Shown here: piece by piece, positions 30,129-43,058 of the stretch
Layout: every line of letters starts with the position of its first letter
How positions within the stretch are numbered: the first letter of the stretch is position 1
Sequence record: NC_024124.2
Length of the DNA stretch: 64,000 nucleotides
Origin: Escherichia phage vB_EcoM_JS09
Strand: one strand, 5' to 3'
Notes under the pieces: model-generated
Database searches by the model: none
Told to the model about the DNA's origin: nothing
The model's input: only the letters and a program-made list of their open reading frames with translations
Made by a program: the position numbers and the translations under genes

Positions 30129-30416
30129 ATGAAAACCTATAAAGAATTTATATCACCTGTTGCTAACGTTTCTACTCTGACTGAAGCAACCCTTACTTCC
30201 GAAGTTATTAAAGCAAACAAAGGCCGTGAGGGTAAACCAATGATTAGTCTAGCTGACGGCGAAGAAGTAAAAGGTACTGTTTACTTAGGAGACGGGTGGT
30301 CCGCTAAGAAAGATGGCGCTACTATTGTTATCTCTCCGGCTGAAGAGACTGCACTGTTTAAAGCTAAGCACATTTCTGTAGCTCAGCTTAAAATTATTGC
30401 AAAAACTCTTCTGTAA
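30129..30416 (+). CDS. internal head protein with capsid targeting sequence (ipI position)
   Basis: 95 aa; N-terminal MKTYKEFI capsid-targeting-sequence motif; adjacent to 57B where T4 ipI lies. Confidence 0.6.
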   Translation: MKTYKEFISPVANVSTLTEATLTSEVIKANKGREGKPMISLADGEEVKGTVYLGDGWSAKKDGATIVISPAEETALFKAKHISVAQLKIIAKTLL

Positions 30417-30419
30417 GTA

Positions 30420-30449
30420 GTTTACACGCTGATAGGACTATGTTATAGT
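30420..30449 (+). promoter_or_regulatory. early promoter cassette with palindrome GATAGGACTA...TAGTCCTATC around -10
   Basis: GTTTAC, 18-nt spacer, TATAGT; perfect 10-bp inverted repeat flanks the -10. Confidence 0.55.
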
Positions 30450-30487
30450 AGTCCTATCAAAACAAAATGAGTAAATGGAGAAATAAA

Positions 30488-30673
30488 ATGAAACGCGCTG
30501 AACTGATTCGTAATGTTGCTGTAGTAATTGCTTCAATGGCTTTTAGTTTTTCGATGTTTGTAGGATTCATTTGTGGACTACTGACAACAACAGAAAATTC
30601 TATCTCATTGGTAGTAGCATTTCTAATCGGCTTAATCGCTATCGTTATGGATAAAATTGCAAAAGGTGAGTAA
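30488..30673 (+). CDS. small hydrophobic membrane protein
   Basis: Track ORF 30467..; second ATG follows SD ggag in the conserved leader; 61 aa, mostly hydrophobic. Confidence 0.5.
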   Translation: MKRAELIRNVAVVIASMAFSFSMFVGFICGLLTTTENSISLVVAFLIGLIAIVMDKIAKGE

Positions 30674-30674
30674 A

Positions 30675-31037
30675 ATGAAATATCACGTATATGCGGATTT
30701 TGAAGCAAATCCTTCTAAAGACCCTGATTGTCGTTTGATACGCAGACCATTTGATTCAGCAGCTCAAGCATGGGCTTGGATTAAATCTAAATCGCCTGGT
30801 TATATGTTCTTTGAAGTAGTCGATGACAATGGTACACTGCATCCAGCCCCTACGGAAACTATTAATTTCCTTCTGTTTGCCGGTTACGACTGTTATCCTC
30901 TTGGCGGTATTGACGACCTTGTTGCTACAGGAAAAACTGTTGAGGCTCTTCGCGAAATTTGTAAAAACGCAGAAGAAAATTTTGACTGGTATCATATTGT
31001 TGATGCTCATACCTTTGAAATGGTGGAACATTCATGA
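30675..31037 (+). CDS. hypothetical protein
   Basis: Track ORF 30657.. (TTG); ATG at 30675 gives MKYHVYADFEANPSKD... Confidence 0.55.
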   Translation: MKYHVYADFEANPSKDPDCRLIRRPFDSAAQAWAWIKSKSPGYMFFEVVDDNGTLHPAPTETINFLLFAGYDCYPLGGIDDLVATGKTVEALREICKNAEENFDWYHIVDAHTFEMVEHS

Positions 31038-31324
31038 TTCTTTATGCTAAGGTAAAATCCGTTGAGAATGGATATGAAAGCGACCGAGCTGCAGCTAAAG
31101 CACTAGTCGATTACTATGGTATTTTGACCCACTTTGAAGTTGAAAAGGTTTACGTCGACCGTTCATCTTCACAGGTTAAATTACTTTGGGAAGACCGCAA
31201 ATTTAATAGTGTGAACTTTGATTTCTTTATTGAAACAGAAAAAGGTCCTCTTGAATATGATATTTTCAAGAATCCTTTGAAATTATGTTGCATTGAATAT
31301 AATTACATTAATATGGTACGGTGA
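31034..31324 (+). CDS. hypothetical protein
   Basis: 96 aa ORF, ATGA overlap with upstream gene. Confidence 0.55.
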   Translation: MILYAKVKSVENGYESDRAAAKALVDYYGILTHFEVEKVYVDRSSSQVKLLWEDRKFNSVNFDFFIETEKGPLEYDIFKNPLKLCCIEYNYINMVR

Positions 31325-31328
31325 GTAA

Positions 31329-31844
31329 ATGAATATTTGTTTAGGCAGTACAATTCCTAAAGGTTACGTAATTGATGTCACTACTTGGGAAAATGACGGC
31401 GACAACTATAAAACCAAAACATTATTTGGTGTAGAAGAGCATGAGCTCCAACAGTTTAAATATCTCTTGAAGAAATTTAAGAGTCGTCATTCTAGCACTA
31501 AAGCTGAACGTTACTGTGGTAATACACCATTCAGTGATTGCTCGCTTTTAATCTATGAATACTTGGTTGAAGGACTGTTCTCAGACCAGCTTTATCCAGA
31601 ATTCATTAAAAAGGTCTTTGATATTGAAGTCGACCTTGGTAATAAATCTGAAGAAGACGAATCGCGTGTATTCGACCTGTTCTTTGTGAAAGGCGATGAG
31701 ATATCCCAAGGCCTTATTGATATTCTTGGCTATGCTTCTGAATACTACGACTATGATTTCTTGCGTGTAGTTGAACGTGTTGAATTCGCTTATATTGAAG
31801 AAGAAATTGTTTTGCCGACTGTTAAAATGATTGATTTGCTTTAA
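31329..31844 (+). CDS. hypothetical protein
   Basis: 171 aa ORF, acidic. Confidence 0.55.
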   Translation: MNICLGSTIPKGYVIDVTTWENDGDNYKTKTLFGVEEHELQQFKYLLKKFKSRHSSTKAERYCGNTPFSDCSLLIYEYLVEGLFSDQLYPEFIKKVFDIEVDLGNKSEEDESRVFDLFFVKGDEISQGLIDILGYASEYYDYDFLRVVERVEFAYIEEEIVLPTVKMIDLL

Positions 31845-31923
31845 GAATTATGTGTTATTATTAATTCATACCCTCTATTACCAAAGGTGCTCTAAAGTGC
31901 CTTTCATAATAGAAAGTTATTTA

Positions 31924-31995
31924 GGCCCTGTAGCTCAATGGGAGAGCTGTCAGCTCATAACTGATAGGTAGCTGGATCGAAACCAGCCAGGGTCA
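31924..31995 (+). tRNA. tRNA with anticodon CAT (Met, or Ile2 if lysidine-modified); genomic CCA follows at 31996-31998
   Basis: Hand-folded cloverleaf: acceptor ggccctg/cagggtc, D stem gctc/gagc, anticodon stem gtcag/ctgat with loop ctCATaa, T stem gctgg/ccagc. Confidence 0.8.
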
Positions 31996-32001
31996 CCAAT
32001 C

Positions 32002-32075
32002 CGAGGCATAGCTCAATTGTATAGAGCAACGGACTTCTAATCCGTAGGTTGAAGGTTAGAATCCTTCTGTCTCGA
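32002..32075 (+). tRNA. tRNA-Arg (anticodon TCT); genomic CCA follows at 32076-32078
   Basis: Hand-folded cloverleaf: acceptor cgaggca/tgtctcg, anticodon stem acgga/tccgt with loop ctTCTaa, T stem gaagg/ccttc. Confidence 0.85.
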
Positions 32076-41478: not shown

Positions 41479-41756
41479 AAACATATAGTGAATTTTTATC
41501 AGAATCTATTCTTAACGAAGCTACTGACACATTTGCGACTAAGCTAGGTGCAGCTTTGGTTGAAGCTGAAAGTCTATTAGCACGTATTTCTGAACTTGCT
41601 AGTAAGATAGATACTCGCAAATTTGAGCGCACCAGTGATATCGTTAAGCTTGAAGCATTGTTGCGTATGTGCGATAAGCCAGAAGAAATCGCTAAGAACG
41701 GCTCGCTGATGAAACAACGTCTTGAAAAATATATTTCAGGCGCTTCAGAAAAATAG
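41475..41756 (+). CDS. internal-protein-like protein with CTS
   Basis: Track ORF 41460..; start at [10 protein letters not shown]...; 93 aa. Confidence 0.55.
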
Positions 41757-41757
41757 T

Positions 41758-41788
41758 GTTTACTTCCTCCAATGGTTTTGATACTATA
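41758..41788 (+). promoter_or_regulatory. early promoter (GTTTAC / TACTAT) with inverted repeat TTCCTCCAA / TTGGAGGAA spanning the SD of denV
   Basis: The 3' arm (41803-41811) is the denV Shine-Dalgarno. Confidence 0.55.
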
Positions 41789-41814
41789 CATTCATCAACT
41801 ACTTGGAGGAAATT

Positions 41815-42228
41815 ATGACTCGTATCAATTTAACACTTGTTTCTGAACTGGCCGACCAACATCTTATGGCTGAGTATCGTGAATTACCACGCGTATTTGG
41901 TGCAGTCCGTAAACATGTTCAAAACGGTAAACGTGTAAAGGATTTTAAAATCTCTCCAACATTTATCTTAGGCACAGGTCACGTAACATTCTTTTACGAC
42001 AAACTCGAATTTTTACGTTTACGCCAAATCGAGCTAATCGCTGAATGCTTGAAACGTGGTTTCAAAATCAAGGACACGACTGTCCAGGATATTTCCGACA
42101 TCCCTGCCGAATTTTGTAATAATTATGTCCCGTCCGAAGCGTCCATTGCGATAAGTCAAGCACGCTTAGATGAAAAAATTGCTCAACGTCCGACTTGGTA
42201 CAAATACTATGGTAAATCAATTTACTAA
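41815..42228 (+). CDS. denV: endonuclease V (pyrimidine-dimer DNA glycosylase / AP lyase)
   Basis: [35 protein letters not shown]... near-identical to T4 DenV; 137 aa. Confidence 0.95.
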
Positions 42229-42240
42229 GGAAAAATGAAA

Positions 42241-42351
42241 ATGTATCAAGAATTTATCATTGAAGCAGAGGCCAAAGGTCCTAAAGTAGATGTTGACGAT
42301 ATTGGATATGATTTTAACAACTTCGGAATTATTTCTGGCGGTAAAGCTTAA
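42241..42351 (+). CDS. short CTS-like peptide (36 aa; possibly an internal-protein gene remnant)
   Basis: MYQEFIIEAEAKGPKVDVDDIGYDFNNFGIISGGKA; has the CTS core YQEFI.E. Confidence 0.3.
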   Translation: MYQEFIIEAEAKGPKVDVDDIGYDFNNFGIISGGKA

Positions 42352-42354
42352 ACG

Positions 42355-42384
42355 GTTTACGCTTAAGTATTAATATGGTATAAT
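42355..42384 (+). promoter_or_regulatory. early promoter (GTTTAC / TATAAT)
   Basis: 18-nt spacer; upstream of 42415 CDS. Confidence 0.55.
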
Positions 42385-42414
42385 TGCTCTATCAAAACAA
42401 ACAAGGAAACAAAA

Positions 42415-42729
42415 ATGAAAACGTATAAAGAATTTATTGCAGAATCCGCCAACCAACGCGTTGAAGGTGGTTATATTTGGATTGAACAAGTTGAGCCACC
42501 GAGCCGCACTTCTACAGGTAAATGGAAAATTACTGTTGATGGTCCTGGTGGTAAACGTAGGACTCTTAAAGAAATTAACGGGTACTATGAAGAAGCTCTT
42601 TCGGATGCAGGAACTTACATGATGCAAATCATGATTAAAAACCCTGAAAACCGTTTTGCAGCTAAAGTCTTCCGCCGTATTGGTAATAAACTTTATGATG
42701 CATATTCTAAAAACTTCCCTAAAGAATAA
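42415..42729 (+). CDS. internal head protein with CTS
   Basis: 104 aa; N-terminus MKTYKEFIAE (CTS consensus with gp21 cleavage site after Glu10). Confidence 0.6.
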   Translation: MKTYKEFIAESANQRVEGGYIWIEQVEPPSRTSTGKWKITVDGPGGKRRTLKEINGYYEEALSDAGTYMMQIMIKNPENRFAAKVFRRIGNKLYDAYSKNFPKE

Positions 42730-42755
42730 CATAAATTAAAACAATAGGAAAAAAA

Positions 42756-43058
42756 ATGAAAACATATCAAGAATTTATTACTGAAGCGCGAGTGAGTGCA
42801 GGTAAATTAGAAGCCGCTATAAATAAAAAGGCCCATTCATTTCATGATTTGTCCGATAAAGACCGTAAGAAACTTGTAAGCCTTTATATTGACAAAGAGC
42901 GTATTCTCGCTCTTCCTGGCGCTAATGAAGGTAAACAGGCCAAGCCTTTGAATGCTGTCGAAAAGAAAATTGATAACTTTGCTTCTAAATTCGGTATGTC
43001 TATGGATGACCTTCAGCAAGCGGCTATCGAAGCAGCTAAAGTAATTAAAGGTAAATAA
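42756..43058 (+). CDS. internal head protein with CTS (ipII-like)
   Basis: 100 aa; MKTYQEFITEARVSAGKLEAAINKKAHSFHDL...; T4 IPII is about 100 aa. Confidence 0.65.
   Translation: MKTYQEFITEARVSAGKLEAAINKKAHSFHDLSDKDRKKLVSLYIDKERILALPGANEGKQAKPLNAVEKKIDNFASKFGMSMDDLQQAAIEAAKVIKGK

Follow-up and report, generated by a model that had tools for sequence, protein, structure and literature searches.

Introduction

The internal proteins (Ips) of bacteriophage T4 are injected into the host together with the DNA. IPI, as IPI*, is injected and inhibits the type IV restriction enzyme GmrSD of E. coli CT596, and IPIII inhibits the GmrSD of ECOR17 and also aids head assembly. The idea that hypervariable Ips bearing a capsid targeting sequence (CTS) serve as injected anti-restriction proteins reportedly goes back to Repoila and colleagues in 1994. 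Here we describe a set of such genes in a 64,000-nucleotide stretch of the DNA of Escherichia phage vB_EcoM_JS09 (NC_024124.2), the whole of which is called the window below. By sequence, the window carries five intact and one decayed Ip-class genes in three places, and we consider it likely, with a probability of roughly 80%, that the products of the five intact genes are Ips of the T4 class, packaged by means of their CTS, trimmed by the prohead protease gp21 and injected. Most of these genes belong to families that are already known as Ips; the exception is a gene at a third locus, which probably represents a further Ip family.

Much of the biology of this class has been described in T4 and its relatives. 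According to PMC9026906, which reports on Mullaney & Black (1996), the first 10 residues of IPIII suffice for packaging, with positions 4 and 7 serving targeting and positions 8 and 10 serving cleavage by gp21. Each of the proteins Ip1, Ip2 and Ip3 inhibits a single GmrSD variant and does not protect against the others (PMC12373910); IPII of T4 inhibits the GmrSD of ECOR21, which is of the BrxU type (Silas et al. 2025, PMC12373910), and IPIII lacking its CTS is active in the host cytoplasm (PMC9391042). McrBC is inhibited by a fourth protein with a CTS, Bas37_0260 (bioRxiv 10.1101/2025.11.20.689424). With Ip1-3 acting on GmrSD and Bas37_0260 on McrBC, anti-restriction is the best-supported function of the class; the first-pass annotation of the window had named it as one candidate role, next to host takeover. 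That CTS-bearing Ip genes lie in polymorphic loci, and that there are "at least 10" Ips, is credited to Repoila et al. 1994 in PMC12373910 (see also PMC3012670).

Six genes with CTS-type N-termini

The region 29500-43500 of the window matches deposited Mosigvirus phages of Escherichia and Shigella at 96-97% identity over 94-100% of its length (TU01, pEK20, SSE1, HX01 and mar005P1), and RB69 is 93-97% identical to the window in the alignable parts. The window is, as judged from these matches, that of a Mosigvirus, an RB69/JS09-like T-even phage.

A six-frame translation of the 64-kb window was searched with two forms of the CTS motif, and the counts were compared with those in shuffled sequences, 200 of them shuffled by mononucleotide and 200 by 3-mer block. 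The strict form, MK[TM]Y.EF[IL], gave five matches against 0.0 in the shuffles, and the loose form, M..[YF].EF[ILV], gave six against 0.09. Every match was the first residue of an open reading frame (ORF) of 38-208 amino acids (aa) on the + strand. These ORFs, designated here by their first nucleotides, are 41475 (93 aa) together with 30129 (95 aa, MKTYKEFISP), 32818 (208 aa, MYTFNEFLAE), 42235 (38 aa, MKMYQEFIIE), 42415 (104 aa, MKTYKEFIAE) and 42756 (100 aa, MKTYQEFITE). The six CTS-type ORFs in three loci that the first-pass annotation had listed are thus all present, on the + strand and in the same places.

In all six ORFs, the positions linked to targeting are occupied by Y or F (position 4) and by F (position 7), and position 8 is I or L. 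E at position 10, and with it a processing site of the form (I/L)xE at residues 8-10, is found in five of the six; 30129 has instead an LTE at residues 17-19, like T4 IPI. The other departures from the consensus are a change of K2 to Y in 32818 and of T3 to M in 42235. The common start MKTY(K/Q/S)EF(I/L)xE, originally ascribed to four of the ORFs, therefore holds for 41475, 42415 and 42756 but not for 30129, in which position 10 is Pro.

When the six ORFs and T4 IPI, IPII and IPIII were compared by BLASTP, the matches were confined to the N-terminal ~11-19 residues, apart from two orthologous pairs; this agrees with the earlier view that the bodies are mutually unrelated, and the comparison revealed no IPIII orthologue among the six. 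Five of the ORFs lie at known Ip loci (between 57B and tRNA.4, or in the e-denV-vs.8 region) and 32818 lies elsewhere. In public records, four of the six genes bear Ip names or "internal head protein" labels. The sibling Mosigvirus loci that we scanned contain 5-7 CTS genes each, so that the set is typical of the genus. Weak Pfam matches to CsgH, DUF7412, SIX1_SD and NTF2 fell below the cut-offs and were disregarded.

The phrog_2280 gene at 32818

The gene at 32818..33444 (+ strand; MYTFNEFLAE↓T, where the arrow marks the predicted cleavage) is the sole member of the set without an Ip annotation in any database. It matches phrog_2280, a family of unknown function, with E = 1.1e-57 over residues 1-203. 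A second site, ITE↓A, ends at residue 16, and the predicted mature protein is of ~21.9 kDa with an isoelectric point (pI) of 9.7. Homologues were found by tblastn in 137 phage records, and those annotated among the 40 matches listed are all called "hypothetical protein". Carriers of phrog_2280 belong to at least six genera, including Mosigvirus, Dhakavirus, Karamvirus, Tegunavirus, Winklervirus and the Klebsiella T4-like phages. In homologues from other Tevenvirinae genera, at 45-70% identity, the CTS is kept (MKTYNEFLNE, MLKFKEF, MLNFNEFITE, MLQYNEFLKE), as is the further (I/L)xE↓A site at about residue 16. Within Mosigvirus, the slot after rnaC carries a CTS gene in all eight loci examined, although not always a close relative: RB69 ORF149c (146 aa, MKTYAEFLTE) and SA79RD_146 (154 aa, MKSYAEFLTE) are divergent phrog_2280 members in the same slot. 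The homologues in JS98 and PG7 sit between the tRNA region and e.8.

The gene is preceded by homologues of rnaD and rnaC (32443..32785, + strand), the T4 small stable RNAs of species 2 and 1, with ~90% identity to the T4 sequence at 71.0-71.2 kb; no Rfam family matched these homologues, and ORFs annotated within this stretch in some deposited relatives are probably spurious. The terminator hairpin of rnaC adjoins a canonical T4 late promoter, a perfect match to TATAAATA at 32775..32782 (+ strand), which starts 43 nucleotides (nt) before the ATG of 32818. The same arrangement of hairpin, perfect TATAAATA and ATG is found in JS98 (Dhakavirus), fHe-Yen9-01 (Tegunavirus) and PG7 (Karamvirus), that is, in four Tevenvirinae genera if the window is included, and versions of TATAAATA with one mismatch occur in CBH8, Biddle_MM4, RB69 and SA79RD, a Klebsiella phage being among the carriers.

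The AlphaFold2 model of 32818, in which both helical domains are modelled with confidence, consists of a helical N-terminal domain (residues 20-72), a disordered linker rich in Pro, Lys and Ala (74-112) and a three-helix C-terminal domain (122-206) with a predicted local distance difference test (pLDDT) score of ~90. A profile search against PDB sequences gave no match, and a HMMER scan of 1.8 billion representatives returned 13 proteins, none of which has an annotated domain. In an hhalign comparison with T4 IPIII, ~25 N-terminal residues were aligned with a probability of 26%; given that probability and the restriction to the N-terminal stretch, we make no claim of homology to IPIII.

Judged from the sequence, phrog_2280 is very probably one more family of Ips, situated at a third locus. 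The fuller proposal, that it is an unrecognised family of packaged and injected proteins with its own late promoter at a third Ip locus, seems to us evenly poised; such a protein could be the functional counterpart of IPIII in phages without IPIII, and could target a new defence. It is also conceivable, though we think it the less likely course, that some of the Ips, and chiefly this IPIII-sized protein, are mainly structural, acting as core, scaffold or DNA-condensing components in head assembly or charge neutralisation. The basic charge of the predicted mature protein and its linker of ~40 disordered residues between helical domains would suit such a role, 32818 is the only Ip gene here with a dedicated late promoter, its family is kept in at least six Tevenvirinae genera rather than being strain-specific, and the window is without IPIII. 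In T4 IPIII mutants, head assembly runs at about half its usual rate and the burst is ~40% of normal, and Ips bind DNA at low salt (PMC9026906). However, T4 IPIII also inhibits GmrSD (PMC12373910), so that structural and anti-defence roles are not exclusive of one another. Moreover, T4 itself is without the phrog_2280 family, and the versions in RB69 and SA79RD are shortened and divergent, a pattern that fits an accessory gene rather than a core structural one, and no homology to IPIII was found past the N-terminal residues aligned by hhalign.

The ipI and e-proximal loci

The gene at 30129..30416 (+ strand) is an ipI orthologue (phrog_4363), with 87% aa identity to T4 IPI. Its match to the Pfam family IPI_T4 (PF11634; E = 1.1e-49, 166.7 bits, cut-off 25) spans residues 20-95 and profile positions 1-76 of 76, and its place between 57B and tRNA.4 is that of ipI in T4. 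Residue 19 is the last of its sole (L/I/V)xE site (LTE↓A), the equivalent in T4 IPI being MKTFKEFTST...ITE↓A. The predicted propeptide comprises residues 1-19 (MKTYKEFISPVANVSTLTE↓A), which would leave a mature protein of 76 aa, IPI*-sized, with a pI of 9.0. A PeSL-type early promoter with a stem-loop (GTTTACA N17 TACTAT; 30065..30094, + strand) lies upstream, as it does for T4 ipI.

The remaining four genes lie downstream of the lysozyme gene e. The first, at 41475..41756 (+ strand), has a 10-residue CTS followed by ↓S and belongs to phrog_3499, "internal head protein"; its ATG overlaps the stop codon of e (ATGA). It shows 99% identity to the "putative internal head protein" of phage Nami and, over the full length, 48% to Ip5 of T2 and 51% to bas42_0266. 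The counterpart in RB69 is RB69p127, which RefSeq names "internal head protein", a label that other records share. We note that RB69p127 (RB69 6923-7204, minus strand) starts with the corrupted CTS MKTYMNFYQN, while its body is near-identical to those of the window and of other Mosigviruses, which suggests that the RB69 sequence contains either a pair of local frameshifts or a sequencing error.

Published functions for the Ip5 or Ip10 families were not found in our search. In a separate line of data, bas37_0261, an 85-aa gene at the ipI locus that is Ip5-like by size and position only, was depleted as insertion mutants with a log2 fold change of -2.09 and an adjusted p reported as 0, apparently for BW25113 versus 'CFT' (bioRxiv 10.1101/2025.11.20.689424, supplementary tables). 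Since the neighbouring 57B is also depleted in the Bas37 data, a polar effect is possible; we take the depletion as a possible clue to the function of the Ip5 family, not as a result.

The e-proximal locus is split by the resident denV gene for endonuclease V (41815..42228, + strand), which has 78.7% nt identity to T4 denV. Behind it, at 42235..42351 (+ strand), lies a remnant of 38 aa (MKMYQEFIIE↓AE...), left over from an internal head protein of 86 aa that is related to Ip7. The first-pass annotation had recognised the variant CTS both of 32818 and of this small ORF, and was right in each case, but it had placed the start of the small ORF at 42241. An in-frame ATG at 42235, two codons earlier, fits the 10-residue CTS register, and we regard it as the likelier start because of this match; the spacing to the Shine-Dalgarno sequence is 3 nt for 42235 versus 9 nt for 42241, which is compatible with either. 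A separate 38-aa family in PHROGs, phrog_35655, matches residues 1-38 of the remnant.

The 86-aa form is present in RB69, mar005P1, SA79RD, JN02 and moskry; it belongs to phrog_2667 ("internal head protein", related to T2 Ip7) and carries the annotation "internal head protein" in many records. Compared with the corresponding stretch of a relative (13437-13697), 144 nt are missing in frame from both the window and TU01, with a short direct repeat, AAG-N-CCTAAA, at the junction, so that the remnant retains the CTS, 7 further residues and the last 21 residues of the 86-aa form. Since TU01 shares the deletion and phrog_35655 exists as a family, the truncated form circulates rather than being a one-off.

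The next gene, at 42415..42729 (+ strand; MKTYKEFIAE↓S), is preceded by a PeSL-type early promoter (GTTTACG N17 TATAAT; 42354..42384, + strand) and is Ip10-like. It belongs to phrog_3966, which also includes RB69ORF123c, and shows 72% identity to "Ip10 [Shigella phage SP18]"; the VR25 homologue is annotated "ip10: putative internal head protein", and several other records read likewise. The predicted mature protein is of 10.8 kDa with a pI of 9.6. Its structural model, built from a 4-sequence alignment, is too poor for use (pLDDT 49).

The last gene of the set, at 42756..43058 (+ strand; MKTYQEFITE↓A, mature pI 9.7), is an ipII orthologue (phrog_7857) with 93% aa and 96.0% nt identity to T4 ipII. 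This is in contrast to the backbone genes gene 1, 57B, e and denV, which have 71-79% nt identity to their T4 counterparts.

Cassette exchange at the Ip loci

The neighbourhood of ipII suggests how it may have been acquired. It is followed by a PeSL-type early promoter (43061..43090, + strand) with 92% identity to the element upstream of T4 ipIII, and then by a second copy of denV, a 5' fragment of 42 codons (43116..43244, + strand), whose nt identity is 80% with T4 denV but 72% with the resident denV. The fragment is present in TU01, where it is annotated 'endonuclease', and absent from SA79RD. The order of ipII followed by denV is that of T4, and the fragment looks like a pseudogene that was carried in with a T4-like ipII cassette. 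A comparison of eight Mosigvirus loci with T4 showed that in the last slot before vs.8 the window tracks RB69 up to the ribosome-binding site (RBS) and tracks T4 from the CTS onward. From these alignments, the ipII-denV segment looks as if it had come from a T4-like phage, one crossover being located in the CTS, and we see 42756 as an imported cassette because the denV 5' fragment came in behind ipII.

The contents of the slots differ among the eight genomes, in line with the first-pass view that the Ip genes sit in variable loci. The last slot before vs.8 holds ipII in the window, TU01, SA79RD and ZQ3, and a 109-aa phrog_3966 protein in RB69, mar005P1, JN02 and moskry. Extra Ip genes were also seen, namely RB69 p156 (Ip7-like) before ipI and an 87-aa CTS gene after ipI in ZQ3. 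At least 10 PeSL-like repeats are spread over 30-43 kb (30065, 30419, 33497, 34080, 37173, 38465, 38733, 41758, 42354 and 43061), each an element of ~50 nt that combines an early promoter with a stem-loop, AGTTTACA...GATAGGnCTA TGTTATAGT AGTCCTATCAAA; they fit the consensus published for T4-type phages, TTTACW N17 TAYWAT (PMC4122927). Variation at the Ip loci comes from cassette exchange, with crossovers in the shared RBS/CTS DNA and in the repeated PeSL elements.

The position of these crossovers raises the question of whether the CTS-coding 5' end persists mainly as a module for recombination and translation initiation, with packaging unproven for each product and some copies decaying or non-functional. 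Besides the crossover points on RBS/CTS DNA, the remnant at 42235 retains a perfect CTS despite its internal deletion, and the Ip5-like gene of RB69 has the reverse, a corrupted CTS before an intact body. We nevertheless consider this explanation improbable. Residues 4, 7, 8 and 10 are kept even though the nucleotides encoding these N-termini differ by 11-33% (repeat families D3 and D7), the CTS of phrog_2280 is kept across genera at 45-70% overall identity, and the 10-residue CTS of T4 is on its own sufficient to package foreign proteins (PMC9026906). A chance or compositional origin of these common N-termini in an AT-rich genome has nothing beyond the AT-rich codons of the motif in its favour and can be set aside, since the six matches stand against the 0.09 expected and all are ORF starts on the coding strand that are conserved in relatives.

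Other features of the region

On the + strand, the genes run in the order gene 1 (dNMP kinase), 57A, 57B, ipI, tRNA.4/.3/.2, tRNA-Met and tRNA-Arg (31924-32078), the rnaD and rnaC homologues, the e.x gene block, nudE, e, denV and vs.8, which is the T4 e-tRNA-ipI region in reverse. An Rfam scan of 29.5-43.5 kb returned the two tRNAs and nothing else.

Two repeat patterns were seen between 32818 and e. Three tandem small ORFs at 36375-36680, 36690-36962 and 36972-37169 (101, 90 and 65 aa) each end in G(A/G)WV(S/A)SSxxC, and the DNA at their stop/start junctions is repeated as well, so that they look like a paralogous trio. Separately, a motif F-I-x-E-C-R is found at or near the C-termini of four dissimilar ORFs (35059-35676, 36019-36378, 38790-39095 and 39783-40274). 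The counterparts of two of these, e.3 and e.2, are annotated as predicted membrane proteins in relatives, and the DNA coding for the motif recurs as direct repeats (families D13 and D16).

Discussion

From the observed sequence motifs, homologies, promoters and recombination junctions, we infer packaging, cleavage, injection and targets as follows. In the 10-residue N-terminal CTS, position 4 is aromatic and position 7 is Phe; this CTS would bind the scaffolding core of the prohead, and gp21 would then cut after (L/I)xE, at residue 10 or, in IpI, at residue 19. The mature proteins, small, mostly basic and of 8-22 kDa, would remain in the head, enter the cell with the DNA and neutralise first-line defences ahead of any phage gene expression. 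By analogy with T4, the IpI and IpII orthologues most likely inhibit type IV restriction enzymes of the GmrSD family, which also attack the arabinosylated-cytosine DNA of Mosigvirus, while the Ip5-like, Ip10-like and phrog_2280 proteins most likely inhibit other modification-dependent nucleases. The five intact genes are read as injected nuclease inhibitors because of the biology of the T4 Ips and because BrxU, an enzyme of the GmrSD family, cleaves the 5-arabinosyl-dC (5-ara-dC) DNA of Mosigvirus (PMC13390438).

Several points weigh against this reading. We found no virion proteomics or N-terminal sequencing of Mosigvirus or Dhakavirus Ips in the literature, and a proteome paper on a Jiaodavirus names "internal virion proteins", none of which could be mapped to the families in the window. 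The prohead protease and scaffold genes lie outside the region examined, and no scan for gp21 was made in the rest; the genes for gp21 and gp22 belong to the core genome and are highly conserved in T4-related phages (PMC9026906). Targets are known for none of Ip5, Ip10 and phrog_2280, and ten further ip genes gave no new inhibition when set against five newly active GmrSD systems (PMC12373910). Because T4 IPIII also contributes to head assembly (PMC9026906), Ips need not all be purely anti-defence. For the 38-aa remnant, from which a mature peptide of 28 aa is predicted, retention of function is unlikely. As for 32818, it has Tyr in place of Lys at position 2, it lies outside both Ip loci named by Silas et al. 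(PMC12373910), and a Foldseek comparison of its fold with the PDB gave no significant match, the best hits (E = 3.3) being generic helical hairpins only. Packaging and injection of the five intact proteins nevertheless remains the reading that we prefer.

The observation made in the first-pass annotation is correct and its interpretation is largely so, but the system is of a known kind and its members are mostly known, so that the claim of a novel, expanded set does not stand as worded. IpI and IpII are orthologues of the T4 proteins, 41475 is Ip5-like, 42415 is Ip10-like and the small ORF is the remnant of an internal head protein. With the bodies of five of the ORFs already known, the claim of new members survives on 32818 alone, which is without an Ip annotation. 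The only new element is that phrog_2280 is recognised as probably a family of Ips, unless Repoila et al. 1994 already noted it.

The present analysis adds to the earlier work in three respects: phrog_2280, at a third locus, is put forward as probably an Ip family; exchange of cassettes at the level of the CTS is documented, including the apparent import of ipII from a T4-like phage; and two details of the first reading, the cleavage site of 30129 and the start of the small ORF, are corrected. Injected Ips are the first phage proteins to face host immunity, and those characterised to date all disable type IV restriction enzymes, a different one in each case. The catalogue of Mosigvirus Ip cassettes may serve as a source of inhibitor candidates that can be paired with orphan variants of GmrSD or McrBC, and such a list of candidates could be of use in predicting host range and in choosing therapeutic phages.

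Comparison with known systems

Among the closest described systems are the Ips of T4. The protein encoded at 30129 is like IPI/IPI* in length, locus, its late LTE/ITE↓A site and its PeSL-type promoter, in addition to their high aa identity. The two differ in the DNA that they accompany, which has glucosyl-hydroxymethylated cytosine in T4 and arabosylated cytosine in Mosigvirus (PMC13390438, PMC13326640). Similarly, the 42756 protein has the same CTS as T4 IPII and is near-identical to it, but its gene has denV and two other Ip genes in front of it and the denV fragment behind it. The resemblance to T4 IPIII (193 aa) is of another kind: 32818 is alike in size (208 aa, mature ~22 kDa), in basic charge and in having a CTS, whereas it differs in its locus after rnaC, in its own late promoter and in a similarity that is limited to ~25 N-terminal residues. 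Ip5 of T2 and Ip10 of SP18 and VR25 belong to the T-even Ip series reported by Repoila et al. 1994. In T2 and Bas42, ip5 is at the ipI locus, whereas the Ip5-like gene at 41475 directly follows e, where T4 has ipIII.

Outside these families, Bas37_0260, which acts on a type IV enzyme, has the same design as the ORFs of the window, with a CTS leader, an unrelated small body and a place in an Ip locus. It has no similarity to the six ORFs past the CTS, as judged from a Bas42 gene of the same size and position that was inferred to be its proxy, and we dropped a link between the window ORFs and this McrBC inhibitor since nothing beyond the CTS is common to them. Finally, the repeats in the window (TTTACA N17 TA(T/C)(A/T)(G/A)T with a stem-loop) correspond to the PeSL mobile cassettes described by Arbiol 2010 (PMC2839356) and Comeau 2014 (PMC4122927), and here too they flank variable genes, among which are ipI, ipII and the gene of Ip10 type. 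Compared with the published PeSL cassettes, the Ip slots of the window appear to offer an additional crossover site in the RBS/CTS DNA that they share.

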